NCBI GenBank assembly: GCA_965204745.1 | Contig: OZ242010.1 | Span: 2,432,001 to 2,496,000, forward strand | From: Candidatus Latescibacterota bacterium | GTDB taxonomy: Bacteria; Latescibacterota; UBA2968 | Reading direction: 5' to 3' | DNA length: 64,000 bases | In this document: piece by piece, positions 4,179 to 18,224 of the stretch | How positions within the stretch are numbered: position 1 is the stretch's first letter | How the letters are laid out: the number at the start of each line of letters is the position of its first letter | Position numbers and translations under genes: made by a program | Notes under the pieces: model-generated | Told to the model about the DNA's origin: nothing | Database searches by the model: none | Seen by the model: only the letters and a program-made list of their open reading frames with translations

Positions 4179-4401
4179 CGGCCCGCAGGCGAGCACGAGG
4201 GCATCGCAAAAAGAAGTTGCTGCACAAAGGCGATGACTCGATTCATCGCCGCGAAGCCGGATGGCGCGCCTGGCTCGATTGGGGGCATCGCACGCTGAAG
4301 ATTTTCGATATTCGGGTCAATGTGTTGATCGACCCGCAATTTGAAACCGAGCATACCCATTGCCAAAGCCATGAGTTTTGTAATTTCAGCCGACGCAACA
4401 A

Positions 4402-4937
4402 CTCTGGCTACACTTCCATCAAAACAAGGATTGAAACAAATTTCGAGATACGCGAATCGTTTCGAGGCGGGAACTCTCGCTACACTTCCATCAAAACGAG
4501 GATTGACAAATGGGGAAAATAGCTTAGATTTTTTGGACATTATAGAGAGGTTGTGATGAGGACATTGAATCGACATTGCGATGGGTGATTGGGATTCAAT
4601 GCACGATGTTCATCGTGTTGGTAGGATTGATGCTACCGGTGCTCTGGGTGCTGTTGAAAGGGCGTGCGGGATAACCTTAAACAGAGGTAAGACAATGACA
4701 ACTGATGAAAAATTGATTGAACACGAGACGCGCATCTCTCGGATGGAGGGTATTATTGAGGAGATTCGCACGCGGCTTACAGGGATGGAGGCTGGTCAGC
4801 GCGAACTTGGCAGGAAAATCGACAGCGTGAAGCATACGATTTTGGTGGGGTTGCTGTTTATCACCGGCTTGTTGTCGAAGATGGCGTTCTTTGATTGATG
4901 CCTCTCGCTACACTTCCATCAAAACGAGGATTGAAAC
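4402..4937 (+). CRISPR. Orphan CRISPR mini-array: three 36-bp repeats (4402-4437, 4474-4509, 4902-4937) with a 36-bp spacer and a 392-bp gene-containing interval
   Basis: Consensus CTCTCGCTACACTTCCATCAAAACGAGGATTGAAAC has the typical ATTGAAAC 3' end. Spacer 1 is 4438-4473. No cas genes in the window. Confidence 0.8.
4695..4898 (+). CDS. Small coiled-coil protein with C-terminal TM helix (XhlA/DUF1640-like architecture), between CRISPR repeats 2 and 3
   Basis: MTTDEKLIEHETRISRMEGIIEEIRTRL...ILVGLLFITGLL; GAGG RBS; stop codon 3 bp before repeat 3. Confidence 0.7.
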   Translation: MTTDEKLIEHETRISRMEGIIEEIRTRLTGMEAGQRELGRKIDSVKHTILVGLLFITGLLSKMAFFD

Positions 4938-6436: not shown

Positions 6437-7474
6437 GTGGTGACCTCTCCCATCCCTCCCATCTTTGTACTGAGCACAGGGCGGTGCGGCTCGACGATGG
6501 TGTCGAACATCCTAAACCATCATCCGCGCGTGCTCAGCCTCTCCGAACTCATCAGCTATATCGGGATACGCTCGTTCAGCCGTCGTCGGACCACTGGCGA
6601 TTGGATGTGGGAACGCTATAGCCGGCAACAGCCGCGAACCCGTCTCATGTTGCAGGGGCGGTACGAGGAACTGCTTTACCCGCTCGACGATCCCAACAGC
6701 CGTTTCACGCAGGACGACGTGCCGCCTATTCTGTGTGCCACGCTCCCACACCTCACCGAACGGTACGAGGACTTGTTCGATGCGCTCGAGCCGATGGTGC
6801 GGGGCCAGCCGAGACAGTCGCCGGCCGACCACCTCCGGCATTTTATCGCGTGGTTGTGCCAACGGTACGGTTGCTGCACTTGGGCCGAACGCTCGGGCGG
6901 GTCCCTTCTTTTCGCTTCTAGATTGCTACACGAGTTTCCCGAGGCGCGGGTGATCCACGTGTACCGCGATGGACGGGAAACGGCCATCTCGATGAGTCGG
7001 CACTACCTCTTTCGCCTGATCGCCGCGACCATGCTGGCACTTCGATCCTTTGGATTCGATGCGATGAAATCGCTCGCTCGGGGAAGGCACTGGGAGCGAC
7101 TCAGCTCGCGCTTGGAGCCGTTGACGAGATTGTTGCTGAACCCCGCAAAGCTGCCCTACGACGAGCTGACACTCCGCGATTTCGGGGTTCTCTGGAGCGC
7201 GATGATCGAGCGGGGAGACCGCATGCTCAGCCGCTTGCCATCAGGCCACCTGCTAAATGTCAAGTTCGAGGCCATACAGGCGGATCCGGACCGCGAGATC
7301 CGGCGTCTCATTCGATTCATCGATCCATCGCTGGAAGATGAGGCATGGCTGGGCGCGGCGCGCTCAATCCCGCGACAAACGACGTCCAAGTTCGCGCAAC
7401 TTACCGCTGGCGATCAGGCCGCGCTCTCCGCAACGTGCCGCCCTGGGCTTGAACGCCTGGGATATCCGCTCTGA
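6437..7474 (+). CDS. Sulfotransferase family protein
   Basis: 5'-PSB motif STGRCGST; 3'-PB motif IHVYRDGRETAIS. Confidence 0.88.
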   Translation: MVTSPIPPIFVLSTGRCGSTMVSNILNHHPRVLSLSELISYIGIRSFSRRRTTGDWMWERYSRQQPRTRLMLQGRYEELLYPLDDPNSRFTQDDVPPILCATLPHLTERYEDLFDALEPMVRGQPRQSPADHLRHFIAWLCQRYGCCTWAERSGGSLLFASRLLHEFPEARVIHVYRDGRETAISMSRHYLFRLIAATMLALRSFGFDAMKSLARGRHWERLSSRLEPLTRLLLNPAKLPYDELTLRDFGVLWSAMIERGDRMLSRLPSGHLLNVKFEAIQADPDREIRRLIRFIDPSLEDEAWLGAARSIPRQTTSKFAQLTAGDQAALSATCRPGLERLGYPL

Positions 7475-7515
7475 GCCTACCTAAGTAGATTTATCATTGG
7501 GAATAAGGTACATCA

Positions 7516-8118
7516 ATGCCGCGTAAAAATAGGTTTCTCAACATCGGCGACCCGGCCCCCTTATTCACGCTTCCCTCGCATCAGCAACGAGACGTGTCGC
7601 TGGCGTCACATCGAGGGAAAGACCGCGTCATCCTGACGTTTTTTCGGGGAACTTGGTGAAGGAGAAGCCGTCGTCAGTTGGCGACCGTGCAAGAACACCT
7701 TGACGCGTACACCCAACGCAACGCGACGTCTATTGCCATCGCCGCCGGGCAACAGGTCCGCGAACTGCGCGAATACGCCGAACGCAACGGCATCACCTAT
7801 CCGCTTCTGTTGGACGCAGACCAGAGCGTAATCAAAAGCTACGGGGTATATCACTATTTCGGCCTAGCGGGTCACAATTTCGCGTACAACATTTTTCGCC
7901 CGGCGACGTTCATCGCCGACAAACTCGGCTATCCGTTGTACAACTATATCGGCTTGGCGGATCGCAACCTCCGCAACACCATTGCCCGTCCCGCGACGTT
8001 TATCATCGATGAACTCGGCATGGTCCGGTATATGTATATCGGATCGAATCAGTTTGATTTGGCCGAACAGGAAGAAGTTCTCGCACACTTAAAATCGCTG
8101 AAGAGTGAGATCCAGTAA
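7516..8118 (+). CDS. AhpC/TSA (peroxiredoxin-like) protein with in-frame UGA, probable selenoprotein
   Basis: The ATG at 7516 reads ...LNIGDPAPLFTLPS...ILTFFRGTW-TGA(7657)-RRSRRQLA and continues in frame into the 7678-8118 ORF (YPLLLDAD, RPATFIID). UGA occupies the catalytic Cys position, with a hairpin 10 nt downstream. Confidence 0.75.
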
Positions 8119-8187
8119 GAGACTTCGTCGCCGCCTCGAATATCATCCAGATGCACTGAACAACCCGGCACCGTCGAGCAGGAAAAT

Positions 8188-8228
8188 CTCTCTCTACACG
8201 TCCATCAGTGAGAGGAGCGGATTGAAAC
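8188..8228 (+). CRISPR. Degenerate copy of the CRISPR repeat
   Basis: CTCTCTCTACACGTCCATCAGTGAGAGGAGCGGATTGAAAC versus consensus CTCTCGCTACACTTCCATCAAAACGAGGATTGAAAC. Confidence 0.6.
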
Positions 8229-8243
8229 GCAAAAAGAAAAGGG

Positions 8244-8272
8244 TTGTGCTCGGCAGGCGATCTGTGTAAATT
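8244..8272 (+). promoter_or_regulatory. Putative sigma-70 promoter of the tRNA-like RNA
   Basis: TTGTGC-17 bp-TAAATT (same -10 as the tRNA-Phe promoter), ending 6 bp before the closing stem. Confidence 0.5.
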
Positions 8273-8278
8273 TTGCCT

Positions 8279-8391
8279 GCCCTTACAATGCAATGTAGAT
8301 CTCAATTTGGTAGAGTGGCTCGCCGAGGCAACTCGGTCAGCGGGTTGCGGGTTCGAGTCCCGTCATTGCGTTGTGGGGGCTATTTTTTTTT
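8279..8391 (+). ncRNA. tRNA-like structured RNA lacking an anticodon loop and CCA
   Basis: 17-bp closing stem (8279-8295/8364-8380), D-arm-like CTCAATTTGGTAGAG, CCGAG-GCAA-CTCGG GNRA hairpin in place of the anticodon arm, canonical T arm GCGGG-TTCGAGT-CCCGT, then a T-run. Confidence 0.7.
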
Positions 8392-8518
8392 CCACTTCTA
8401 ACAAGGATTGAATGGCTTAGGTTTTTGGACATTAGCAACATTGAATCGACATAACGTAGATATGAACACATCGTTGACGCAGGCGTTTCGCCTAAATGCA
8501 ATGGCTGAACGACGCAGA

Positions 8519-8556
8519 GAAAAAGCCATCCCAAATTTATCGGGATGGCTTTTTTC
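8519..8556. terminator. Bidirectional intrinsic terminator
   Basis: AAAAAGCCATCCC...GGGATGGCTTTTTT. Confidence 0.8.
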
Positions 8557-8576
8557 TATTCCATAACACCGCTTCC

Positions 8577-8693
8577 CTACCTTCTCGCCAACACCCGTGC
8601 GCGGGTTTGTGCAACGATGTCTTTTTGAGGCCCGGCGTTGGGGGCAGTTTTGCGATTGAGGAGTGCGAGGATATTTCTTTTGGAATGTACCAT
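8577..8693 (-). CDS. Possible 38-aa small basic protein
   Basis: MVHSKRNILALLNRKTAPNAGPQKDIVAQTRARVLARR with a GGAGAGG RBS, ending just before the terminator. Confidence 0.35.
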   Translation of the reverse strand: MVHSKRNILALLNRKTAPNAGPQKDIVAQTRARVLARR

Positions 8694-8761
8694 TTGTGCC
8701 TCTCCCTGCCCTGCATCCAAGTAGCCAGTAGTCAGTAAGTCAGTCCCCGCGCCCTAATCCC

Positions 8762-9655
8762 TCAAACCCTGCCAAATTCCAAAACGCTGTGGGCGATTCG
8801 CACCTCGAGGCCGATAGGCAGGACGCGGCGGGACTTGCCGTGGCCGTAGGGCAGGTCGCAATACACCGGGCAGGACACGCGCATAGCAAAATCCGCGAGC
8901 ACGTCTTCGAGTTGCCCCTCGGATTCGCACTCGGGTTCGCAACCCACAAATTCGCCGAACACCACGCCCGCGGCGCGATCAAATGCCCCGGCCATTGCCA
9001 GTTGATTCAGCATGCGATCTACGCGATAGGGCGGCTCATTCACGTCCTCCAGCGCGATCACCGCGCCTTCGCATTGCGGGAAAAACGCCGTGCCTGCCAG
9101 CGACACCATGAGCGATAAACACCCGCCGATCAGCGTGCCCGTGGCCTCGCCCTCGCGCAGGGCCGTCAAGGGGATGGGCGCGAACCGATGCGAACACACC
9201 GCGTCCCACAACGCGCTTTCGGTCTCGGCATGGAGACCCTCTGTCGTCACATCCGAACACAGGGACAGCCCGGAAAACGTGACCAGTGCCGCACGGTCAT
9301 AGATACCCAACTGCAACGCCGTCGTATCGCTCAGGCCGACCAACGCCTTGGGGTTTTGCGCGATCAACGCCCAATCCAACAAGTCCAAAATGCGGGCCGC
9401 GCCATATCCGCCACGCGCCACAAAAATGCCCTTCACATCTGTATCCGCAAACATCGCATGCACATCGTCTGCCCGCGCCCGATCCGTTCCCGCCAGATAC
9501 CGATCTCGTGCGTAGAGCGACTCGCCCTCGCGCACGCGAAATCCCCGCTGTTGCAAATACGCCACTCCCGGCGTCAACCGCTCGCGCTCGAATGACCCGG
9601 ATGGCGCGATGATCCCGACTGTATCGCCGGGTTGTAATTTGGAGGGAAGAGTCAT
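8762..9655 (-). CDS. ldcA: LD-carboxypeptidase (peptidase S66)
   Basis: LQPGDTVGIIAPS, YLAGTD..RA, RGGYG, GLSDTTAL, LEDVNE, PYGHG catalytic motifs. Confidence 0.9.
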   Translation of the reverse strand: MTLPSKLQPGDTVGIIAPSGSFERERLTPGVAYLQQRGFRVREGESLYARDRYLAGTDRARADDVHAMFADTDVKGIFVARGGYGAARILDLLDWALIAQNPKALVGLSDTTALQLGIYDRAALVTFSGLSLCSDVTTEGLHAETESALWDAVCSHRFAPIPLTALREGEATGTLIGGCLSLMVSLAGTAFFPQCEGAVIALEDVNEPPYRVDRMLNQLAMAGAFDRAAGVVFGEFVGCEPECESEGQLEDVLADFAMRVSCPVYCDLPYGHGKSRRVLPIGLEVRIAHSVLEFGRV

Positions 9656-9665
9656 AGTGGTCAGT

Positions 9666-10032
9666 GGCGTCGTTGCATAAATGGCGATAGCCTGCTGTTT
9701 GGGGTAGCAAAAAGACAGGCTCCTTCGCAGATTGGGCATATTTGTCACCGCCACAACACCCTTTCTCACAAGGAACCTGTCATGGCTAAGATAGCCTCTT
9801 CCAAGACCTCCGTCAATGCCCCTCGTCGCCGGTGCTGTGAGACTTGTCTATCGGGTGCGGAACTAGGCGGCTTACGAGGCTGGCCTCAAGTAGCGGGGCA
9901 GTCTGACGTTTTGGATCACGCCTCGAGCCCTTCGGGGCTGGTACTTTCAAGGGCCGACGCAACGGGGGCGCAAACTTGGCGATCCAAACAGCGGTGATGG
10001 TGTGTTTGTTCTATCCCTTGCCCCTGCGCCAA
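9666..10032 (+). pseudogene. Truncated, decayed IS5 (IS903-like) fragment: left IR plus 5' end of the transposase
   Basis: Left end GGCGTCGTTGCATAAAT and leader AAAAAGACAGGCTCCTTCG...GGAACCTGTCATG match the intact IS at 59581. The fragment is frameshifted and ends at TTGCCCCTGCGCCAA. Confidence 0.88.
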
Positions 10033-10068: not shown

Positions 10069-10227
10069 GGGGTTCTCCTCTCTATGAGATCCATGTGCCG
10101 GTTAGAAACTGTTTTAATTTTTTCAAGACCTACCTTCGCGCCGCTCATTGTAGGCTACGCCTGGAACAAAAAAGAAGGTCTCCCCTCCCCGTTTCGGGGA
10201 GGGGCCGGGGGAGGGGTCCTATTCCTT
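10069..10227. repeat. ~155-160 bp inter-cassette repeat (copies at 14378-14532 and 15691-15850)
   Basis: Near-identical GGTTAGAAACTGTTTTAATTTTTTCAAGACCTACCTTCGCGCCGCTCATTGTAGGC... containing the GC-rich palindrome CCCCTCCCCGTTTCGGGGAGGGG. Confidence 0.9.
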
Positions 10228-11313
10228 TCAAAAATTGACCGTGAGCGCGGCGCGAAGCCCTTTGTCTCGCGTGGGCGCGATGCTCAGGTTGAGGCGTTGC
10301 GGCGATACCTCAACCCATTTCTCGGATTTTATTGTAGCACCCATGAGAGTCGAGAGAACCACTATGGATGGGAATATATACACCGCTGTCACGAATGTAG
10401 CAAGGCCACGCCAGTCGTTGTCCTCATCGTTCAAATCTACCAGCGCGATTGGAACGAGGATAATAAGTCCAAGCCCAAGCCCAATCTTAAAGCCTTTGCC
10501 CGTGTTTCGATGCTGTCCAATGCTGACTTCAAAGTTGGAGATTGAAGACATGGGGACTTGATAAAATGTGTGTCCACCTTGGATAACGACCGTGTCTCGA
10601 TTCATTTTTATGACCTCGCCAACGATCCGACTTTTTGAAAGTGAAGGGGCTTTGAAACGCACTTTGGCATTGAACAGGGTCTGTCTTGCATTTTTCCACC
10701 ACCGATCAATGTCTCGCTTGTGTTTAGCAACAACAAGTGTGTCAATGTCGCTGTATGCTATCCATCTTTCCCAGTTTTGCTTTTTGATTGCGATGCGGTT
10801 TGCGCCTTTACCGACAATCCACCCGGTTACGGTTTCTTTCGTCCTTTCTGGTGTATAGACGACATGGGCATACCATCCTTTTCTTATTTTTTTTAGATCA
10901 ATCTGCTCGCGTGTCATGACCGTGGGGAACTGTTGGTTGAACCGTTGGATGGCTTGTGCTTTATTCCGAATAACCCGATTCACCTCGTTCATCTGCGTCG
11001 CGGGCACGCTGGATTCTTCGCTCATGATTATGGATAGAACTTTGGCATAAGCGATAGTCGTCTTGCTCTTGAGTCCGCCGCTGCGAATGGTGAACGATGT
11101 CTCGCCTATCGCATCGATCCAGCCCCTCGCCATTCTTTCTCGGTCATTGCCATCGCGATAGGTGACAGCGATGTACGCATCTCGAACCAGCGCGTTGGCA
11201 TTGACCTGATCGCCTTGCAAGTGCTTGGCGGCATGTGCGAGCATGGGGGCCATCGCATTGAGCACGAGGGTCGCGGTGACAAAGATGGCGATGGATTTGG
11301 TGATGGTGTGCAT
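10228..11313 (-). CDS. Array protein: signal peptide + three Sm-like modules + variable hydrophobic hairpin + type-1 beta C-terminus (…LRAALTVNF)
   Basis: Shares blocks with paralogs; conserved AGGAGAACCCC RBS. Confidence 0.85.
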   Translation of the reverse strand: MHTITKSIAIFVTATLVLNAMAPMLAHAAKHLQGDQVNANALVRDAYIAVTYRDGNDRERMARGWIDAIGETSFTIRSGGLKSKTTIAYAKVLSIIMSEESSVPATQMNEVNRVIRNKAQAIQRFNQQFPTVMTREQIDLKKIRKGWYAHVVYTPERTKETVTGWIVGKGANRIAIKKQNWERWIAYSDIDTLVVAKHKRDIDRWWKNARQTLFNAKVRFKAPSLSKSRIVGEVIKMNRDTVVIQGGHTFYQVPMSSISNFEVSIGQHRNTGKGFKIGLGLGLIILVPIALVDLNDEDNDWRGLATFVTAVYIFPSIVVLSTLMGATIKSEKWVEVSPQRLNLSIAPTRDKGLRAALTVNF

Positions 11314-11346
11314 GGGGTTCTCCTGTCTGTGAGGTTTGAGAGCCGG

Positions 11347-12183
11347 TTAGAACCGCAATGTGGCGATTGCCGATACGTTGCCATTGCGGTCAGGCGCGAG
11401 CCCGATTGAGAGCCGGCGGGGTTCAAGGGCAGGGTGTGACCGTTTGGACATCATCGCAACCCCGACGAGCGGGCCGATGAGCAGAGAAGGCCAGAGTTTT
11501 CTGTTGATGGCGGTCATCATAACCGTGCCTGCGCTCAATCCCATCGCGCTGCCTTTCAGCCCAACGCCAAATTGACCAGGTGTTTTTTGCATCAATGCGC
11601 GAATCCCTATGCCAATCCCACCGCCGATAAGCACGCCCAAAAAACTGTACATCGGGGCAGCGAAGCCACCGAGGGGATCATCCTCTTCATTGCTATTTAT
11701 TCCAATTTCCCAACCGATTATTCCACCTCCTATCCCTCCCAAAATACCCAAAGTGACAACACCGGGAACCCAGCGGCGGTTATCATCTGCCCTTTTTAGT
11801 GGACGCCCCAGACGCAGAAGGTTTTGGGCGTGCAACAGTTGGAATGGATTATCGCAAACCATGAGTTCTTCAATCCAAGTCCGCGGAATGGTCTTTTCTG
11901 TGTTGTCTCGGCGAATCGTCAGTTCGGTTTCATCTATCGCTCGGACGAATCCTTCCTCGGTTTCAATTTTGCCATCGCCTTTGCGATAGGTCACGCCGAC
12001 GTATCGGCCCTTGGCAACGACCAATTGCCGGGCGCGTTCACCGATAAACCGCTCAACCCCTGCAATCACCTCTGCGGGCGCGTTGTTCTCTGCCTGCGCG
12101 AGCGCAGGGGCCATCGCATTGAGCACGAGGGTTGCAGTGACAAAGATGGCGATGGATTTGGTGATGGTGCGTTCTGCGTACAT
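11347..12183 (-). CDS. Array protein: signal peptide + module B + glycine-zipper helices + type-2 C-terminus (…NVSAIATLRF)
   Basis: GxxxG-rich segments; shares blocks with the 17055 and 19569 genes. Confidence 0.85.
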   Translation of the reverse strand: MYAERTITKSIAIFVTATLVLNAMAPALAQAENNAPAEVIAGVERFIGERARQLVVAKGRYVGVTYRKGDGKIETEEGFVRAIDETELTIRRDNTEKTIPRTWIEELMVCDNPFQLLHAQNLLRLGRPLKRADDNRRWVPGVVTLGILGGIGGGIIGWEIGINSNEEDDPLGGFAAPMYSFLGVLIGGGIGIGIRALMQKTPGQFGVGLKGSAMGLSAGTVMMTAINRKLWPSLLIGPLVGVAMMSKRSHPALEPRRLSIGLAPDRNGNVSAIATLRF

Positions 12184-12227
12184 GGATGCCTCCGATTGAG
12201 TTTGGGGTGCTCGTTCTGCAACACGTC

Positions 12228-13142
12228 CTAAAATTTCAAAGATGGCCCAACCGCCACGGTCATTCCTCGCAAAAAATGATTATCCAAATACTCCCAAAAT
12301 AAGTCGGCTCGCACGGCGGCTTGCACGTTGATATGCGGATGAACAGGTACAAGGATCGCGGCACCCGCCGAACCGCGCGGACGGGTCGTCGATTCGTAAT
12401 CCCCTCCGCTCTGGTAGTAGATGTTCTCAAAGGATGCGCCAAACGCGAAATCGGCCAGCAAGACGACTCGTTTGCGATTGTTGAGGACATAAGCTTTTTG
12501 AAAGACCAGCAATGAGGAAAACACCCGTGCGGTCATGCCGGCCTCGCGTCGTCTAATTTCAGATTCACTTCTCCGCCAATGAGATACACTATATTCTTGG
12601 TCGGGCGAAACCGCAAAGATATTTACTTTTTGATACGCACATCGCAACCCAACCCGCGAACGGTCTTCATCAGAGAGGAAATCGCCGAAATAGAGAGACG
12701 CGGCCCACAGTGACTTTTTGTACCGATCACCAAAGATATAGAATCCCGTATACATTTTACTGATGTTAAAAAAATAACCGGCTTCAAGCGTCAATTCCGG
12801 TTTGAAATGGGTTAGCCATGAACGCGGGCCGGTCGTCTTTTTAGGTGCGGTCAACGCGATGATTTTGTGAATGCGCTCGCGGTCAATTTCCGTTTTCCAA
12901 GAATCGACGCCGATGATCAACCGCTTTGAATCAACCGCCTTGATTAGCCCTCTTACAGTCGCCATGCTTTCCCACTTCCCAGAGATCGAATCCCGCTCTC
13001 CCTCCCCATAAGTGATCATGACATACGCGCCGATTTCAACCGCGTTGCTGTCGATCTCCCCGGCTTTCACATCCACTTCTGCCCGTAGAACTCCTGGCAG
13101 ACACACGCCCAAAAGCAAAACGATTATCGCCATTCGTACCAT
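12228..13142 (-). CDS. Secreted protein: Sm-like N-domain + probable outer-membrane beta-barrel
   Basis: Signal peptide; GAYVMITY...VRGLIKAVD resembles array module A; alternating beta-strands ending VAVGPSLKF. Confidence 0.7.
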   Translation of the reverse strand: MVRMAIIVLLLGVCLPGVLRAEVDVKAGEIDSNAVEIGAYVMITYGEGERDSISGKWESMATVRGLIKAVDSKRLIIGVDSWKTEIDRERIHKIIALTAPKKTTGPRSWLTHFKPELTLEAGYFFNISKMYTGFYIFGDRYKKSLWAASLYFGDFLSDEDRSRVGLRCAYQKVNIFAVSPDQEYSVSHWRRSESEIRRREAGMTARVFSSLLVFQKAYVLNNRKRVVLLADFAFGASFENIYYQSGGDYESTTRPRGSAGAAILVPVHPHINVQAAVRADLFWEYLDNHFLRGMTVAVGPSLKF

Positions 13143-13174
13143 GTGTTCCTCCTGTCGAATCAGGATCCTTTGCG

Positions 13175-14377
13175 TTAAAAATTGACCGTGAGCGCGGCGC
13201 GAAGCCCTTTTTCAGGCGTGGGCGCGATGCTCAGGTTGAGGCGTTGCGGCGGCACTTCAACCCAGTTCTCGGATTTGGTTGCAGCACCCATGAGAGTCGA
13301 GAGAATCACTATGGATGGGAAGATATACGCCGCTGTAATAGCTGTGGCCCAGCCGTGCAATTCGAATTCGCCCCCTTCTTTATAATCTGCAATCGCGACT
13401 GGAACGAGGACAGCAAGTCCAAGCCCAAGCCCAATCATAAAACCTTTGTCCGCGTTTCGACGCTGTCCAATGCTGGCTTCAAAATTAGAGATGGAAGACA
13501 TGGGCACTTGAAGAATCGCCATCTTTATCACCGCGGCACTCGTGCTCAATGTACGTCCTTCTCGGATGAGAAGTGTGTCTTGCGTCATTTTGACGACCTC
13601 GCCAACGATCCATTCTTTTGTCAGTGAAGGAACTTTGAAACGCACTTTGGCATTGTGTGTCATGAACCGCTGTATGGCTTTTGTCTCTGCTTCTATTTTC
13701 TTTTTTTTTCGCGCTACTGCATTCCGTTGCGTTAAGTACACGCCTGTATCTGCACTCATGACCAATGTCATCACTTTGGCGTATGCAATGGTCGTCTTGC
13801 CCAAGAGGCCGTTTTGAATCGTGAACGATGTGTCGCCAATCGCCTTAATAATCCCCGCTTTCTCCTGTTTCAGTTTATTGTCCTCGTAATAGGTGACGAC
13901 AGCGTAGGCATTTTGAACCAGCGTATCGGCCTTGACCTGTTCGCCTTGCAGGTGGATAACCCCGGTCCTTGCCTTCTGTTCTGCCTTTGCCGCTCTTCTT
14001 TCTGCCTTTGCCGCTCTTCTTTTTTCATCTCTGATAAACCGATTTACCTCATTCATCTGCTTCGCGGGCACGCTTGATTCCTCGCTCATGATTATGGATA
14101 GGACTTTGGCGTAGGCGATAGTCGTCTTGCTCTTGAGTCCGCCGCTGCGAATGGTGAACGATGTCTCGCCTATCGCATCGATCCAGCCCCTCGCCGTTCT
14201 TTCTCGGCCATTGCCATCGCGATAGGTGACAGCGATGTACGCATCTCGAACCAGCGCGTTGGCATTGACCTGATCGCCTTGCAAGTGCTTGGCGGCCTGC
14301 GCGAGCATGGGAGCCATCGCGTTGATCAGAATGGTCGCCGTGACGAAAATGGCGATGGATTTGCCGATGGTGTGCAT
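13175..14377 (-). CDS. Array protein (modules A + A' + C, type-1 C-terminus)
   Basis: Shared signal peptide, module A, NAKVRFK module and WVEVPPQRLNLSIAP...LTVNF. Confidence 0.85.
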   Translation of the reverse strand: MHTIGKSIAIFVTATILINAMAPMLAQAAKHLQGDQVNANALVRDAYIAVTYRDGNGRERTARGWIDAIGETSFTIRSGGLKSKTTIAYAKVLSIIMSEESSVPAKQMNEVNRFIRDEKRRAAKAERRAAKAEQKARTGVIHLQGEQVKADTLVQNAYAVVTYYEDNKLKQEKAGIIKAIGDTSFTIQNGLLGKTTIAYAKVMTLVMSADTGVYLTQRNAVARKKKKIEAETKAIQRFMTHNAKVRFKVPSLTKEWIVGEVVKMTQDTLLIREGRTLSTSAAVIKMAILQVPMSSISNFEASIGQRRNADKGFMIGLGLGLAVLVPVAIADYKEGGEFELHGWATAITAAYIFPSIVILSTLMGAATKSENWVEVPPQRLNLSIAPTPEKGLRAALTVNF

Positions 14378-14532
14378 GGGGTTCTCCTCTCTATGAGGTT
14401 TGAGAGCCGGTTAGAAACTGTTTTAATTTTTTCAAGACCTACCTTCGCGCCGCTCATTGTAGGCTACGCCTAAAATAAAAAAAGAAGGTCTCCCCGTTTC
14501 GGGGAGGGGCCGGGGGAGGGGTCCTATTCCTT

Positions 14533-15690
14533 TCAAAAATTGAACGTGAGCGCGGCGCGAAGTCCTTTGTCTCGCGTGGGCGCGATGCTCAAGTTGAGAT
14601 GTTGCGGCGATACCTCAACCCATTTCTCGGATTTTATTATCGTCCCCATGAGAGTCGAGAGAACCACTATGGGTAGGAATGCTATTGTCTCTAAAGGGAT
14701 GCCTGGCCATTCGTTCGGCAATATGATCTCGTCGTTAGAATTAGAATCTGCAATCGCGGCTGTAACAACGACAGCATATCCAAGCCCAAGCCCAATCATA
14801 AAACCTTTGCCCGCGTTTCGACGTTGCCCCAGGCTGGCTTCAAAATTGGAGATTGAAGACATGGGCACTTCAAGAAATGTACGTCCTTCTCGGATGAGAA
14901 GTGTGTCTTGCGTCATTTTGACGACCTCGCCAACGATCCGACTTTTTGAAAGTGAAGGGGCTTTGAAACGCACTTTGGCATTGTGTGTCATGAACCGTTG
15001 CATTGCATTGCTTGCATTTTTCAACTCTTCAACAGATCCTCGGTATTTAGCGTTGGCGACAACTATCGCGTCGATATCGCCGTATGCTATCGTGTCGATA
15101 TCGCCGTATGCTCTTTCCCAGGTTTTTCCGACGAATCTGGCCTTATTTTTGAACTCGTGGATTACGATATGCTTTGCGTCTTTGGTGATAATCCATCCGG
15201 TTGCGGTTTCTTTTTGGTTTTCTGATGTATAGATGGCATGGGCATACCATCCCTTTGTGATCTTCTCGGGGACGATCTGCTCGCCTTGCAGGTGGATAAC
15301 CCCGGTCCTTGCCTTCTGTTCTGCCGCTCTGCTTTTTTGATCTCTGATAAACCGATTCACCTCATTCATCTGCTTCGCGGGCACGCTTGAGGCTTCGCTC
15401 ATGATTATGGATAGGACTTTGGCGTAGGCGATAGTCGTCTTGCTCTTGAGTCCGCCGCTGCGAATGGTGAACGATGTCTCGCCTATCGCATCGATCCAGC
15501 CCCTCGCCGTTCTTTCTCGGCCATTGCCATCGCGATAGGTGACAGCGATGTACGCATCTCGAACCAGCGCGTTGGCATTGACCTGATCGCCTTGCAAGTG
15601 CTTGGCGGCATGTGCGAGCGCAGGGGTCATCGCATTGAGCACGAGGGTTGCAGTGATGAAGATAGCGATGGATTTGCCGATGGTGTGCAT
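14533..15690 (-). CDS. Array protein (modules A + D + C, type-1 C-terminus)
   Basis: Near-identical to the 15851 gene except in the hydrophobic hairpin. Confidence 0.85.
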   Translation of the reverse strand: MHTIGKSIAIFITATLVLNAMTPALAHAAKHLQGDQVNANALVRDAYIAVTYRDGNGRERTARGWIDAIGETSFTIRSGGLKSKTTIAYAKVLSIIMSEASSVPAKQMNEVNRFIRDQKSRAAEQKARTGVIHLQGEQIVPEKITKGWYAHAIYTSENQKETATGWIITKDAKHIVIHEFKNKARFVGKTWERAYGDIDTIAYGDIDAIVVANAKYRGSVEELKNASNAMQRFMTHNAKVRFKAPSLSKSRIVGEVVKMTQDTLLIREGRTFLEVPMSSISNFEASLGQRRNAGKGFMIGLGLGYAVVVTAAIADSNSNDEIILPNEWPGIPLETIAFLPIVVLSTLMGTIIKSEKWVEVSPQHLNLSIAPTRDKGLRAALTFNF

Positions 15691-15850
15691 GGGGTTCTCC
15701 TTTCTGTGAGGTTTGAGAGCCGGTTAGAAACTGTTTTAATTTTTTCAAGACCTACCTTCGCGCCGCTCATTGTAGGCCACGCGAAAAATACAAAAAGAAG
15801 GTCTCCCCTCCCAGTTTCGGGGAGGGGCCGGGGGAGAGGTCCTATTCCTT

Positions 15851-17020
15851 TCAAAAATTGACCGTGAGCGCGGCGCGAAGTCCTTTGTCTCGCGTGGGCG
15901 CGATGCTCAAGTTGAGATGTTGCGGCGATACCTCAACCCATTTCTCGGTTTTTATTATCGTCCCCATGAGAGTCGAGAGAACCACTATGGATGGGAATAT
16001 ATACACCGCTGTAATAGCTGTGGGAAAGCCTTGCAATTCCCCCTCTACTTTATAATCTTCAATCGCGACTGGAACAAGGACAGCAAGTCCAAGCCCAAGC
16101 CCAATCATAAAACCTTTGCCCGCGTTTCGACGTTGCCCCAGGCTGGCTTCAAAATTGGAGATTGAAGACATGGGCACTTCAAGAAATGTACGTCCTTCTC
16201 GGATGAGAAGTGTGTCTTGCGTCATTTTGACGACCTCGCCAACGATCCGACTTTTTGAAAGTGAAGGGGCTTTGAAACGCACTTTGGCATTGTGTGTCAT
16301 GAACCGTTGCATGGCCTTGCTTGCATTTTTCAACTCTTCAACAGATCCTCGGTATTTAGCGTTAGCGACAACTATCGCGTCGATATCGCCGTATGCTATC
16401 GTGTCGATATCGCCGTATGCTCTTTCCCAAGTTTTTCCGACTCGCCAACGATCCGTTCTTTCGAATCTGGCCTTATTTTTGAACTCGTGGATTACGATAT
16501 GCTTTGCGTCTTTGGTGATAATCCATCCGGTTGCGGTTTCTTTTTTTCCTTCTGATGTATAGATGGCATGGGCATACCATCCCTTTGTGATCTTCTCGGG
16601 GACGATCTGATCGCCTTGCAGGTGGATAACCCCGGTCTTTGCCTTCTGTTCTGCCTTTCTTCTTTTTTCATCTTTGATAAACCGATTCACCTCGTTCATC
16701 TGCGTCGCGGGCACGCTTGAGGCTTCGCTCATGATTATGGATAGGACTTTGGCGTAGGCGATAGTCGTCTTGCTCTTGAGTCCGCCGCTGCGAATGGTGA
16801 ACGATGTCTCGCCTATCGCATCGATCCAGCCTTTTGCCGTTCTTTCTCGGTCATTGCCATCGCGATAGGTGACAGCGACATAAGCATCTCGAACCAGCGC
16901 GTTGGCATTGACCTGATCGCCTTGCAAGTGCTTGGCGGCCTGCGCGAGCGCAGGGGCCATCGCGTTGAGCACGAGGGTTGCAGTGATGAATATGGCGATG
17001 GATTTGGTGATAGTGTACAT
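15851..17020 (-). CDS. Array protein (modules A + D + C, type-1 C-terminus)
   Basis: Start MYTITKSIAIF with the conserved RBS. Confidence 0.85.
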   Translation of the reverse strand: MYTITKSIAIFITATLVLNAMAPALAQAAKHLQGDQVNANALVRDAYVAVTYRDGNDRERTAKGWIDAIGETSFTIRSGGLKSKTTIAYAKVLSIIMSEASSVPATQMNEVNRFIKDEKRRKAEQKAKTGVIHLQGDQIVPEKITKGWYAHAIYTSEGKKETATGWIITKDAKHIVIHEFKNKARFERTDRWRVGKTWERAYGDIDTIAYGDIDAIVVANAKYRGSVEELKNASKAMQRFMTHNAKVRFKAPSLSKSRIVGEVVKMTQDTLLIREGRTFLEVPMSSISNFEASLGQRRNAGKGFMIGLGLGLAVLVPVAIEDYKVEGELQGFPTAITAVYIFPSIVVLSTLMGTIIKTEKWVEVSPQHLNLSIAPTRDKGLRAALTVNF

Positions 17021-17054
17021 GGGGGTTCTCCTTTCTGTGAGATCCAGGTGCCGG

Positions 17055-18224
17055 TTAGAACCGCAGGGTGGCGATTGCCGATACGTTGCCATTGCGGTCA
17101 GGCGCGAGGCCGATTGAGAACCGACTATCTTTAGGCAACTTGCGTGACCTCTCGGACATAATCACAGACCCGACGAGCGGGCCGACGAACAGGGCGGGCC
17201 AAGTTTGGTCTTTCAATCTGACACTAAGAATCCCGATTCCCAATCCCATGAGGCTACCGAGCATTGATTTGACAGATTGATCGTACGGATCCACAATGCT
17301 CACCCCAAGTGCCATTCCTACCGTATAGGCAATACCCGCGCCAACAACTACTCCTTCAATACATCCGAGATATTTATCACTACACTTACTCCCAATATTA
17401 TTTTGTAATCCACCGCCTACAGCACCTCCCAACCAAAAGAAAGAACCGCCCACAAGAGGTCCGAGAAGCAATTTTTTGGCAATGCGGACTGGAGGGCGAT
17501 CTTCATCTCTTTTCTTGTTTCTTAGGGCGATGCGCTTGGCGTGCTGAAGCTGGCTTGGATGTTCGCAGACGATCAAAACGTCAATCCCATTCAATGGGAT
17601 TTTCTTCTGCCAAATACCCCGGCGAATCGTCAGTTCGGTTTCATCCCTCGCTTGGACGAATCCTTCCACTGTTTCAATTTTGCCATTGTCTTTGCGATAG
17701 GTCACGCCGACGTAGCGGCCCTTGGCAACGACCACTTGTCGGGCGCGTTCACCGATAAACCGCTCGACCCCTGCAATCACCTCTTCGGGCGCGTTGTTCT
17801 CTGTCTGTGCGAGCGCAGGGGCCCTCGCCTCGCTGGCCTCTTCTTTGGCCTGTTCTCTCTCTCTCGCTTTCATATTCCGAATAAACCGATTTACCTCATT
17901 CATCTGCTTCGCGGGCACGCTGGAGGCTTCGCTCATGATCACGGACAGGACTTTGGCATAGGCGATAGTCGTCTTGCTCTTGAGTCCGCCGCTGCGAATG
18001 GTGAACGATGTCTCGCCTATCGCATCGATCCAGCCCCTCGCCGTTCTTTCTCGGCCATTGCCATCGCGATAGGTGACGGCGATGTACGCATCTCGAACTA
18101 GCGCGTTGGCATTGACCTGCTCGCCTTGCAGGTGCTTGGCGGCATGTGCGAGCATGGGGGCCATCGCATTGAGCACGAGGGTTGCAGTGACAAAGATAGC
18201 GATAGATTTGCCGATGGTGTGCAT
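17055..18224 (-). CDS. Chimeric array protein (module A fused to a type-B gene body, type-2 C-terminus)
   Basis: Internal APALAQTENNAP is the signal-peptide tail and mature start of type-B genes. Confidence 0.85.
   Translation of the reverse strand: MHTIGKSIAIFVTATLVLNAMAPMLAHAAKHLQGEQVNANALVRDAYIAVTYRDGNGRERTARGWIDAIGETSFTIRSGGLKSKTTIAYAKVLSVIMSEASSVPAKQMNEVNRFIRNMKAREREQAKEEASEARAPALAQTENNAPEEVIAGVERFIGERARQVVVAKGRYVGVTYRKDNGKIETVEGFVQARDETELTIRRGIWQKKIPLNGIDVLIVCEHPSQLQHAKRIALRNKKRDEDRPPVRIAKKLLLGPLVGGSFFWLGGAVGGGLQNNIGSKCSDKYLGCIEGVVVGAGIAYTVGMALGVSIVDPYDQSVKSMLGSLMGLGIGILSVRLKDQTWPALFVGPLVGSVIMSERSRKLPKDSRFSIGLAPDRNGNVSAIATLRF

Follow-up and report, generated by a model that had tools for sequence, protein, structure and literature searches.

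Parts of the element at the locus

The stretch of DNA analyzed here (the window) comprises 64,000 nt of contig OZ242010.1, from a genome that is 97.65% complete (G000; other G numbers denote the relatives with which it was compared). On its forward strand lies an element whose assignment as an independent tRNA-derived small-RNA gene is well supported, preceded by a predicted promoter and flanked on each side by one degenerate CRISPR repeat (Table 1). The element occurs once in the 5.48-Mb genome.

Table 1. Features at the locus, with positions in the window and the basis or details of each.
Feature	Position	Strand	Basis or details
Orphan degenerate type I-C repeat	8186..8228	+	BLAST of 8203-8232 against the genome's own 194-repeat array, 93% identity
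Predicted promoter	8230..8272	+	A-rich tract (8230-8240), -35-like and -10-like elements
-35-like element, TTGTGC	8244-8249	+	17-nt spacer to the -10-like element
-10-like element, TAAATT	8267-8272	+	ends 6 nt before the closing helix
tRNA-derived small RNA gene	8279..8391	+	predicted RNA of ~105-113 nt
Closing helix, 5′ strand	8279..8295	+	partner 8364-8380; single-sequence MFE
U8/A9	8296-8297	+	
D arm	8298..8316	+	3-4 bp stem with 1-2 nt bulge; Rfam tRNA alignment
Rod arm in anticodon-arm position	8318..8341	+	~9-10 bp
Variable loop, 5 nt	8342-8346	+	
T arm, GCGGG-TTCGAGT-CCCGT	8347..8363	+	Rfam tRNA alignment
Closing helix, 3′ strand	8364..8380	+	
U-run	8383..8391	+	
Degenerate terminal type I-B repeat (..TTCCACTTCTAACAAGGATTGAATG)	8390..8414	+	local alignment to the I-B repeat of relatives
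Trailer-like sequence	8415..8450	+	likeness read by eye
Hairpin and T-run	8520..8556	+	likely terminator of the former array; present directly after the last repeat in G016

As read from the sequence, the closing helix of the window copy contains 17 pairs, of which 3 are G-U, and no CCA is encoded. The loop of the D arm is AATTTGGTA, GG included, and the rod arm begins with 3 bp and a C.C mismatch, continues with a G.U pair and 5 bp, and is capped by a GCAA loop (8328-8331). Together, the 3′ strand of the helix and the U-run (8364..8391) have the form of an intrinsic terminator. An earlier sequence-only reading of the window had described a D-like arm, a T arm, a rod, a 17-bp helix, a T-run and the lack of a CCA, all of which were found on the forward strand. 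The folding z-score was -4.98, and 0 of 200 shuffled sequences folded equally well. The Rfam tRNA model (RF00005) aligned end to end with the window copy (model positions 1-71) and scored it at 25.7 bits, short of the gathering score of 29 (search of 501 nt, E = 0.0037), and ARAGORN made no call at the locus.

Features shared with canonical tRNA (RF00005) are the U8/A9 residues, the GG-bearing D arm, the variable loop of 5 nt and the TTCGAGT T arm; the 7 inner pairs of the element's helix correspond to the acceptor stem, and the genuine tRNA genes of the genome carry the same type of promoter. The element differs from tRNA in lacking a 7-nt anticodon loop, a single-stranded 3′ end and CCA, in an acceptor stem that is longer by 9-11 pairs and in a bulged D stem. 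On the sequence, retention of the parts that would build the elbow (the D loop with GG, the TTCGAGT T loop and the 5-nt variable loop) is well supported, as is retention of the stacked acceptor and T helices. Because the acceptor stem is extended into a closed helix of 16-18 bp, a free 3′ end and a CCA are both lacking, and because a rod, variable in length but with one conserved mismatch, takes the place of the anticodon arm, decoding is impossible. The outer closing helix resembles the hairpin of the I-C repeat over 8 nt, which was judged to be chance, since the likeness is confined to copies of the G000 type. The motif GGTTGTGCT was not enriched in the genome (43 found, 46.9 expected).

The predicted promoter is of the sigma70 type, and its geometry (TTGNNN-N17/18-TANNNT, at a fixed distance) recurs in 7 of the 8 members of the family described below, with the -10 element ending 6-7 nt ahead of the helix in the six clearest members. 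The same pattern was found upstream of 27 of the 50 tRNA and tmRNA genes of the genome, compared with 1.3% of random 70-nt windows. A simple scan of the region for promoters (E. coli-type consensus) and terminators called nothing. The claim that the gene has its own promoter, made in the sequence-only reading, is plausible from the conserved geometry. The terminator scan accepts loops of 3-8 nt, whereas a folded domain of 68 nt stands in place of the "loop" in the element, and none was called; 7 of 8 copies have a U-run behind the helix. The hairpin at 8520..8556 was likewise not called because its loop is 9 nt. If these signals are used, transcription would start at the first base of the helix and would end at the helix and U-run.

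Distribution and conservation of the family

Covariance models of the anticodon-less tRNA-like family (R1 and R2) were defined in the present analysis. A member was required to exceed the tRNA background (58 bits or less) with R2 and to have a closed helix, a mismatched rod and tRNA-type D and T arms. The window copy has all of these and scores 142.6 bits under R1 and 123.3 bits under R2. Eight copies were found in 6 of the 21 genomes of the genus, and the same six genomes were the only carriers among 151 sampled from the phylum. The R2 scores of the eight copies range from 77.5 to 123 bits (77.5-122 for the seven other than the window copy), where the sequences used to build the model match it by construction; the best non-member in the search of 151 genomes was a normal tRNA-Gly at 58.3 bits.

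In the alignment of the eight sequences, 95.5% of cells were paired and 23 of 35 pairs had changes on both sides, counts that were matched by 0 of 500 shuffles and compare with only 37-48% paired in slid controls, with the proviso that the alignment was fitted to the model structure and therefore favors it. Both-side changes occurred in 14 of the 17 pairs of the closing helix and in 8 of the 9 modeled pairs of the rod arm. When each copy was folded alone, an outer helix of 16-18 bp formed in 8 of 8. At a sequence identity of ~71-88%, the helices persist through double changes. The claim in the sequence-only reading that an anticodon-less tRNA mimic is maintained by selection and not decaying thus held, on the covariation and on the presence of the helix in all copies, and the collection of homologues that it had called for yielded eight copies with compensatory changes.

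The rod follows one pattern throughout the family: 2-3 bp, a 1x1 mismatch and a stem of variable length, with arm and variable loop together spanning 28-85 nt. Across copies it has 9 to ~35 pairs and loops of 4-8 nt, and the position of the mismatch is constant while its bases change. A 7-nt anticodon loop is found in 0 of 8 copies. The GNRA cap emphasized in the sequence-only reading is present in the window copy as GCAA, but is not a family feature, occurring in only 2 of 8 members. The T arm is almost unchanged in all eight members, with a T loop of TTC(G/A)A(G/A/T)T in each; 7 of 8 copies retain the GG of the D loop, and the first pair of the D arm varies among A-U, G.U and G-C. Because the D and T stems barely vary, the cloverleaf rests on homology to tRNA and not on covariation. 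For 5 of 8 copies, RNAfold favored pairing between the D and T regions, which gives a rod.

ARAGORN, run with introns allowed, called 0 of the 8 genus copies. The gathering threshold of RF00005 was passed marginally by both copies of G018 (G018a, 34.9; G018b, 34.1) and by the viral element L350 (32.8), while five further genus copies and the viral element L340 were not reported at that threshold. The sequence-only reading had counted a match to a known Rfam family against the element; the tRNA cut-off is not reached by the window copy, and two of its genus relatives and one viral element lie just above that value. These marginal scores reflect tRNA ancestry and not tRNA function.

The element is missing from 15 of the 21 genomes of the genus and from 6 of 10 genomes with I-B arrays, and is dispensable. 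In DNA contigs of strain variants, the T arm and closing helix were unaffected and a rod mismatch was retained; the length of the U-run differs between strains. A unit of 276 nt (8164..8439), comprising the orphan repeat, the promoter, the RNA gene and the downstream repeat, is missing from the contig of a closely related strain, an absence that rests on one 463-nt contig (depth 3.56) joining 8163 to 8440. No conserved protein neighbor was found, the genes downstream of G018a and of the G002 copy being unrelated.

CRISPR arrays and Mu-like phages

Positions 8203-8232, which match the genome's own 194-copy repeat, are also 91-97% identical to that repeat as found in G018, and the cas operon of the genome's 194-repeat array is of type I-C. 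The orphan repeat upstream of the element has the exact 3′ end of this family (...CGGATTGAAAC), with both halves of its hairpin altered and a loop that is 6 nt longer. Downstream, 19 of 23 aligned columns of 8390-8412, with one gap, are identical to the I-B repeat of relatives, and the trailer-like sequence that follows is homologous, as judged by eye, to the stretch after another degenerate I-B repeat in the window (4522-4580). That the array in the window has decayed, leaving one I-C-like repeat upstream and one I-B-like terminal repeat with trailer downstream, is well supported; the position between two degenerate CRISPR repeats given in the sequence-only reading was correct, the upstream copy being I-C and the downstream copy I-B. 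The unit between these repeats is ~161 nt (8229-8389), compared with 34-38 nt for true spacers in arrays of the genus. In this family the "spacer" is a whole RNA gene, with 160-230 nt among loci, and a CRISPR spacer or crRNA unit was ruled out by size (~161 nt versus ~30-40 nt).

The element is a recurrent cassette that occupies the spacer slot of type I-B arrays. In G002, G020 and G014, a cas3-DUF3800-cas1-cas2-cas4 operon (with cas6b-cas8b-cas7-cas5 in addition in G002) is followed by the array and then by one or more cassettes, which lie between repeats at the trailer end of a full type I-B array. Its orientation is that of the array, and repeats adjoin it on both sides in 4 of 8 copies. 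The arrays of G009 and G013 have an identical trailer without the cassette, and the G001 array likewise ends without it. The second G018 copy is bordered by a third repeat family, while G018a, which has neither an upstream array nor a repeat, adjoins a PDC-S01 candidate and a gene for a Cad1/RdrB-like deaminase. G000 and G018 both carry the element but lack Cas6b and a I-B system, which indicates that the element is independent of that system. Arrays of the genus also hold ordinary genes or foreign inserts between repeats, and the repeat flanks could therefore be incidental. The recurrence of the cassette in I-B spacer slots had escaped the sequence-only reading.

Close relatives were identified in two records of Mu-like (pro)phages: L435, with an R2 score of 76.4 bits, and L340, with 69.6 bits. 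Repeats are absent beside them. These two are the clear elements of the viral set, which also holds two doubtful ones, L350 and L393 (= L278); neither is a clear member, and ARAGORN called the former a tRNA-His with an intron and the latter a tRNA-Val. BLAST searches of phage GenBank gave only 26-27-nt matches to the T arm. A pattern scan of genome contigs returned ordinary tRNAs among the matches listed, the only useful match being L087, a Latescibacteria record. In metagenome contigs the same kind of scan gave at least 119 loci, all rejected as intron-bearing, duplicated or ordinary tRNAs; flanking direct repeats were found at none of these loci, and the best R2 scores among those listed (60-63 bits) belonged to intron tRNAs or to the doubtful L278. 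The relatives in Mu-like (pro)phages were also absent from the sequence-only reading.

Possible roles of the RNA

From this architecture we infer, as the best reading, a non-decoding mimic of the tRNA elbow that functions in trans in a defence context. More specifically, we tentatively propose that the independent tRNA-derived gene in the spacer slot gives rise to a trans-acting, non-chargeable tRNA mimic that takes part in phage-host conflict, a role suggested because the architecture is common to Mu-like (pro)phages and defence loci. Acting in trans, the RNA would be non-chargeable and protected from exonucleases, and would present its elbow and its acceptor/T helix to a tRNA-binding factor, serving as a scaffold or else as a decoy or sponge. 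The helix and U-run might in addition act in cis and halt read-through from the array. The gene in the spacer slot, together with the copies in Mu-like phages, points to an undescribed non-coding RNA of phage-host conflict. A further proposal, which we regard as doubtful, is that CRISPR arrays carry working non-guide RNA genes, the tRNA mimic shared with Mu-like phages being kept at the old I-B end as a conflict RNA (decoy/antidote or bait). Such an RNA could act as a decoy or antidote against a phage- or defence-encoded factor that recognizes the elbow, or as bait sensing such a factor, and the phage and host copies would then be opposing sides of one arms race.

It is unlikely that the element is purely a cis-acting end piece of the array, in which helix and U-run terminate the pre-crRNA, the fold protects its 3′ end and the tRNA shape is a legacy. 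The trailer-end position in G002, G020 and G014, the U-run that 7 of 8 copies have behind the helix, and the shared orientation with the array fit such an end piece, but 7 of 8 copies retain a predicted promoter of their own, the residues of the D and T loops are near invariant though a terminator has no need of them, copies occur in phages and without an upstream array (G018a), and the arrays of G009, G013 and G001 finish without the element.

A CreT-like RNA toxin, in which the mimic would for example titrate a tRNA enzyme and be repressed by Cascade with a crRNA-like guide from the degenerate repeats, is improbable. An RNA toxin or antitoxin had been suggested in the sequence-only reading, next to a tRNA decoy. 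In the available text of their descriptions, CreTA/CreR mini-arrays resemble the locus in having degenerate repeats beside a small-RNA gene at type I loci (PMC8501985, PMC9458426, PMC10120712), and degenerate repeats with a strong-looking promoter are likewise a trait of type I CreTA modules in the parts available of two of these sources (PMC8501985, PMC9458426); at our locus, the first "spacer" bases past the upstream repeat overlap the promoter. In CreTA, however, a spacer of normal length pairs with the promoter, and the module lies at the cas operon, whereas the element is a whole RNA gene without a guide-promoter match at the position of the array trailer. Neighboring guides matched the promoter at no more than 9 of 12 seed positions (6 loci, non-self matches); the sole better seed match was a trivial self-match with the repeat end in the place of the PAM, and spacers of the own array matched over 13 nt at best, compared with up to 15 nt in random controls. 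The gene is moreover intact in G000 and G018 without a I-B effector and in G018a without a repeat, and is lost freely in close strains.

There is also a small chance that the element is a processing module, cut at its tRNA-like fold by RNase P and/or RNase Z such that the ends of neighboring crRNA-like RNAs are set. The helix is closed with no conserved break at -1/+1, which is a poor form of RNase P substrate. A U-run terminator would stop most transcripts ahead of the downstream repeat, and the stretch from repeat to fold is predicted promoter with no conserved guide. On the other side, 4 of 8 copies have repeats bordering the cassette both upstream and downstream, and G014a, which lacks the U-run, would read through the repeat into G014b. 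Engineered t-element-crRNA cassettes, of which such a module would be the natural equivalent and which likewise place tRNA-like folds beside crRNA units, are functional in the type I-B host Haloferax, according to the text available (PMC7521656); those t-elements are man-made, free-ended and cut by RNase P and tRNase Z, whereas the element described here is closed and carries a predicted promoter and a putative terminator of its own.

An inert relic, drifting after a tRNA gene had broken or a piece of mobile DNA had entered the arrays, is very improbable. The marginal tRNA score, patchy distribution, presence/absence polymorphism and other foreign inserts between repeats in the same genus would all fit a relic, but the helices have been retained via double changes at ~71-88% identity, the predicted promoter and putative terminator are retained, the 7-nt anticodon loop is missing from every copy and the place of the rod mismatch has stayed constant as its bases changed.

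The known tRNA mimics are tmRNA, Y RNAs and viral tRNA-like structures. Like the element, the tRNA-like domain of tmRNA is an anticodon-less mimic with a T arm and acceptor stem; unlike it, tmRNA includes an mRNA part and its ends are free and aminoacylated, whereas the helix of the element is closed. The genuine tmRNA of the genome was found elsewhere, in keeping with the distinction from tmRNA drawn in the sequence-only reading. Bacterial Y RNAs, in the portion of the source available (PMC4201824), also mimic tRNA without coding for protein, have T and D arms and a long helix formed by their two ends, and are reported in phages, and the topology of the element resembles that of D. radiodurans Yrn1, in which the tRNA-like part is closed by a 5′/3′ helix. 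A Y RNA with a Ro60/Rsr partner is nevertheless close to refuted, as a Y RNA depends on Ro60 and on a conserved helix motif, neither of which was found here: TROVE/Ro60 (PF05731) had no match in the 97.65%-complete genome, with matches in the control genomes of Deinococcus and Bacteroides, no YrlA or Y RNA was matched in Rfam, and the GNCGAAN0-1G motif, as given in the available text of PMC4201824, is missing, with no CGAA in 8279-8391. The acceptor-like stem of YrlA is in addition closed by a loop, with the ends elsewhere, and the separation of the element from YrlA in the sequence-only reading was upheld by the lack of a TROVE gene and of an Rfam match.

[quoted passage not shown] Racrs mimic repeats and the element mimics tRNA; the word "tRNA" does not occur in the available part of that source. 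In the literature searched, no tRNA-like gene inside CRISPR arrays is described, and no tRNA mimic with a closed anticodon-less form, nor any located between CRISPR repeats, was found.

The bacteria that carry the element in their arrays form one sponge-associated group. Should the RNA prove silent, the locus would still be a clear case of array-embedded cargo and array decay in a sponge-symbiont lineage. If it is expressed, arrays can host functional genes besides guides, which would bear on array annotation and on the treatment of "over-long spacers", and a family of elbow mimics shared by Mu-like phages and defence loci would be a tractable new candidate for offence and defence at the RNA level, as well as a natural test of how far the tRNA-processing and tRNA-binding machinery tolerates a closed substrate.

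Structure and conservation of the tRNA-like element

All of the parts described in an earlier sequence-only reading, which proposed an anticodon-less tRNA mimic, were recovered on the forward strand when the sequence was reread (see table). U-A occupies the position of tRNA residue 8/9, the variable loop is 5 nt and no CCA was found in the sequence of the element. The folding z-score was −4.98, with 0 of 200 shuffles equalling the fold. Two of the checks proposed by that reading were run: ARAGORN called no tRNA at the element, its sole call in the window being a true tRNA-Phe (2076–2151), and the Rfam tRNA model aligned end to end at 25.7 bits (cut-off 29), below the cut-off because 18 nt occupy the anticodon region where 11 are expected. 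At gathering thresholds Rfam gave no further match anywhere in the window. G000, the source genome (5.48 Mb, one contig), carries one copy of the element. Elsewhere in G000, ARAGORN called one tRNA whose anticodon has 4 bases (cacg) and, twice, a tRNA-SeC (contig 1, 4199619–4199714, 1907628–1907705 and 2158630–2158727). A row of paralogous minus-strand ORFs with only weak DUF5749 and RimP-SH3 matches lies at window 10228–17092.

Features of the element, the neighboring CRISPR relics and one related locus
Feature	Locus	Position	Strand	Remarks
−35-like site TTGTGC	Window	8244–8249	+	17 nt before −10-like site
−10-like site TAAATT	Window	8267–8272	+	
Closing helix	Window	8279–8295 with 8364–8380	+	17 pairs, including 3 G-U
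D arm	Window	8298–8316	+	Loop contains GG
Rod	Window	8318–8341	+	10 pairs, one C.C mismatch, GCAA cap
T arm	Window	8347–8363	+	Canonical
U-run	Window	8383–8391	+	Nine Ts
Upstream repeat, whole copy	Window	8186–8228		Exact repeat 3′ end kept; hairpin altered in both halves
I-B array remnant	Window	4401–4937		First repeat 4401–4437, then 34-nt spacer
Degenerate I-B repeat of remnant	Window	4472–4508		Followed by trailer-like stretch resembling 8415–8450
Small ORF in remnant	Window	4696–4899		67 aa, coiled-coil and hydrophobic tail
Last repeat of remnant	Window	4901–4937		
Stand-alone adenosine deaminase	L155 (G018)	8496–9953		Like deaminase part of CARF-ADA (Cad1)/RdrB
PDC-S01 candidate	L155 (G018)	6878–8062		

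Homologues were sought in 31 family and 151 phylum genomes using BLAST and covariance models R1 and R2, built from 4 and 8 sequences, respectively. Eight elements were found in six of the 21 searched genomes of one genus (G000, G002, G014 with a tandem pair, G016, G018 with two copies, and G020), scoring 77.5–123 bits with R2; the best match after these was an ordinary tRNA-Gly at 58.3 bits. The runs containing the window sequence were sponge and marine metagenomes; no RNA run was among them.

The outer helix had 16–18 pairs in all eight copies when each was folded singly, an independent check because the alignment leans to the structure to which it was fitted. In that model-fitted alignment, which is biased in this way, 95.5% of cells were paired and 23 of 35 pairs had changes on both sides (closing helix, 14 of 17; rod base, 8 of 9); none of 500 shuffles attained these values, and sliding the partner columns reduced pairing to 37%–48%. 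These compensatory changes, counted with the same caveat, uphold the earlier proposal of selection rather than decay. The D and T stems are near-constant among copies, as in real tRNAs, so that the case for a cloverleaf depends on homology to tRNA; RNAfold returned a cloverleaf for three copies and preferred a rod for the other five. The second G014 copy (G014b) retains the T hairpin with the D region replaced, a pattern that speaks for a T hairpin able to fold independently. The arm and variable loop together span 28–85 nt, and the arm of at least 7 copies opens with 2–3 pairs and a 1×1 mismatch whose bases vary by copy. The GNRA cap noted earlier holds for G000 and G016 (GCAA) but for only those two of the eight, the loop otherwise varying. 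With introns permitted, ARAGORN called 0 of 8 copies as tRNAs; two relatives marginally exceeded the Rfam tRNA cut-off (34.9 and 34.1 bits). The fold is tRNA-derived and structurally selected, and promoter geometry and a terminator-like form are conserved.

When copies were aligned on the first base of the helix, TTG(T/C/A)NN, 17–18 nt and TA(A/T/C)NNT preceded seven of the eight, with 6–7 nt between the −10-like site and the helix in the six clearest and often an A-tract upstream. The exception, G014b, lies downstream of G014a, which has no U-run. A loose pattern, TTGNNN-N16-18-TANNNT, occurred upstream of 27 of 50 G000 tRNA/tmRNA genes versus 1.3% of random 70-nt windows. The promoter assigned to the element by the sequence-only reading is favored by this comparative geometry, which suggests that the gene may indeed have its own; a strict consensus scan made no call at the element because the −35 agrees at only 3 of 6 positions.

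Contigs from four metagenome runs were aligned to window 7900–8900, a contig-based comparison in which rare variants are invisible. Among the contigs of these runs, no difference was listed in the T arm or closing helix, and U-run length differed. The change 8247 T>C gives a −35 of TTGCGC, a form found in other family members, and in run X5, 8320 T>G, 8321 C>G and 8339 A>G shift the rod mismatch by one pair without abolishing it. In run X10, one contig (463 nt, depth 3.56) passes directly from 8163 to 8440; the 276 nt missing from it comprise the RNA gene together with the orphan repeat upstream and the repeat downstream.

Position between CRISPR repeats

Alignment to arrays established that the degenerate CRISPR repeats reported on either side are real relics, type I-C-like upstream and type I-B-like downstream. 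Window 8203–8232 is 93% identical to the repeat of a 194-repeat G000 array (contig 1, 1458657–1472708; repeat 37 nt, 3′ end CGGATTGAAAC) and 91%–97% identical to the same repeat in G018 (BLAST). A type I-C operon (cas3, cas5d, csd1/cas8c, cas4, cas1, cas2) adjoins the leader of this array; the locus (L308) looks active, and one near-trailer unit is an internally deleted repeat (spacing 123). Directly past the U-run, 8390–8412 matches a second, type I-B repeat family (19 identical among 23 aligned columns, one gap); in relatives this family forms large arrays adjoining type I-B operons. The 35 nt 3′ of the downstream repeat resemble the trailer after another degenerate I-B repeat, at window 4472–4580. 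Three enzyme genes separate the array remnant there from the tRNA-like cassette.

In G002 the order is cas6b, cas8b, cas7, cas5, cas3, DUF3800, cas1, cas2, cas4, ~97 repeats, the cassette and one degenerate repeat. G020 and G014 share this operon tail and array, G020 with one cassette and G014 with two in succession, a repeat following each; the last degenerate repeat is followed by a conserved trailer and by a gene for a retropepsin-like protein. In the G009 and G013 arrays the last repeat joins the same trailer directly and the cassette is absent; the cassette therefore behaves as an intra-array unit. In G016 the cassette comes after an I-B repeat, itself separated by a 35-nt spacer from a canonical I-C repeat, and lies ~5 kb past a 140-repeat I-B array that also contains an IS. 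An LD-carboxypeptidase gene lies downstream of the element in G000, G016, G002 and G020, and the locus is therefore syntenic. The second G018 copy lies between repeats of a third family, which forms arrays elsewhere in at least 10 genus genomes. The first G018 copy has no repeats and lies directly upstream of genes for a Cad1/RdrB-like adenosine deaminase and a PDC-S01 candidate ATPase.

Several other features of these loci were recorded. The ~35-nt trailer after the degenerate last repeat is common to I-B arrays of four species (L311, L312, L187, L188), has the retropepsin-like aspartyl protease gene 3′ of it and could be a conserved crRNA-like terminal unit. A DUF3800 gene (PADLOC DUF3800_VII) lies between cas3 and cas1 in three I-B operons (L153, 7911–8774; L187, 17072–18004; L188, 14848–15708). 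Upstream of the L188 cassettes (G014 contig 1, ~2295900–2296130), an I-B repeat is split by a ~135-nt AT-rich, MITE-like insert with inverted-repeat ends. Next after the second G018 copy (L186, ~10190–10525; G018 contig 1, 459190–459525), a ~290-nt "spacer" contains two copies of a fourth 37-nt repeat 36 nt apart, then a hairpin and T-run; it looks like a mini-array nested in an orphan mini-array.

Cas6b occurs in 10 of 21 genomes, those having I-B arrays; the element is present in 4 of these 10 and in 2 of the 11 Cas6b-less genomes, and is therefore not dependent on the I-B system. Repeat-flanked cargo is common in the arrays of the genus, which weighs against a special link between the element and CRISPR: third-family arrays carry a VapB/VapC-like pair (G015, L424) and an insert of two related ORFs with dockerin-like repeats (G012, L423), and the window has its own small ORF and three enzyme genes.

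Relatives in Mu-like phages and candidate roles

Viral contigs were scanned twice by pattern and the matches filtered with R2, which left two clear relatives, L435 (76.4 bits) and L340 (69.6 bits). The closing helix of L435 has 11 pairs, its bulged D arm and its T arm are the same as those of the family, and its rod runs from 3 pairs through a C.C mismatch to 4 pairs capped by a UUCG loop. It lies within a 30.4-kb Mu-like provirus, antisense to head genes, flanked by a Mu F-like minor head gene and by one that we take to be Mu G-like. In L340, a G.G mismatch separates the first 2 rod pairs from 7 more, which are capped by a 5-nt loop; a promoter-like site and T-rich tail accompany this element. 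It is at the edge of a 12-kb Mu-like fragment encoding repressor, Ant, transposase A, a B-like transposition protein and Gam. No CRISPR repeats adjoin either. Two further viral candidates, L350 and L393 (= L278), were held doubtful; ARAGORN reads both as tRNAs. The element resides between CRISPR repeats independently of I-B genes and has relatives in Mu-like phages.

As judged from sequence, the element would be transcribed as a closed RNA of ~105–113 nt. Lacking an anticodon loop, this RNA probably cannot decode; lacking a free 3′ end, it would not be chargeable in the form in which it is made. Conservation appears to fall exactly on the parts that build the acceptor/T stack and the tRNA elbow; the closing-helix sequence and the rod are apparently free to vary. 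This fits an RNA recognized as a tRNA body and favors a trans-acting mimic. The element may also terminate array read-through as a side effect in cis; a role as terminator only leaves unaccounted for the putative promoter, the unvarying loops and those copies that lie outside arrays. A processing module would have a counterpart in the engineered t-element cassettes of Haloferax (PMC7521656), but the closed helix and predicted terminator speak against it. Y RNA identity is argued against by the helix motif missing from the element and by the Ro60 gene, which was not found in the genome. A CreT-like RNA toxin would need a guide, which the element lacks: seed matches reach at most 9/12, matches to spacers of its own array are no better than chance, and the gene persists in genomes without the I-B effector. 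An inert relic is argued against by the compensatory changes.

tRNA mimicry in itself is already known. In the literature searched, no closed tRNA-like gene lacking an anticodon was described within CRISPR arrays, although supplements may list related candidates; in their accessible text, a CRISPR mini-array survey mentions tRNA once, in a different sense (PMC10120712), and a survey of phage structured-RNA candidates refers to tRNA-like candidates only in general terms (PMC10690425). For the trans-acting mimic, our tentative proposal, held at somewhat less than even confidence, is that it might engage an elbow-binding factor during phage-host conflict, as its decoy, its sponge or its scaffold.
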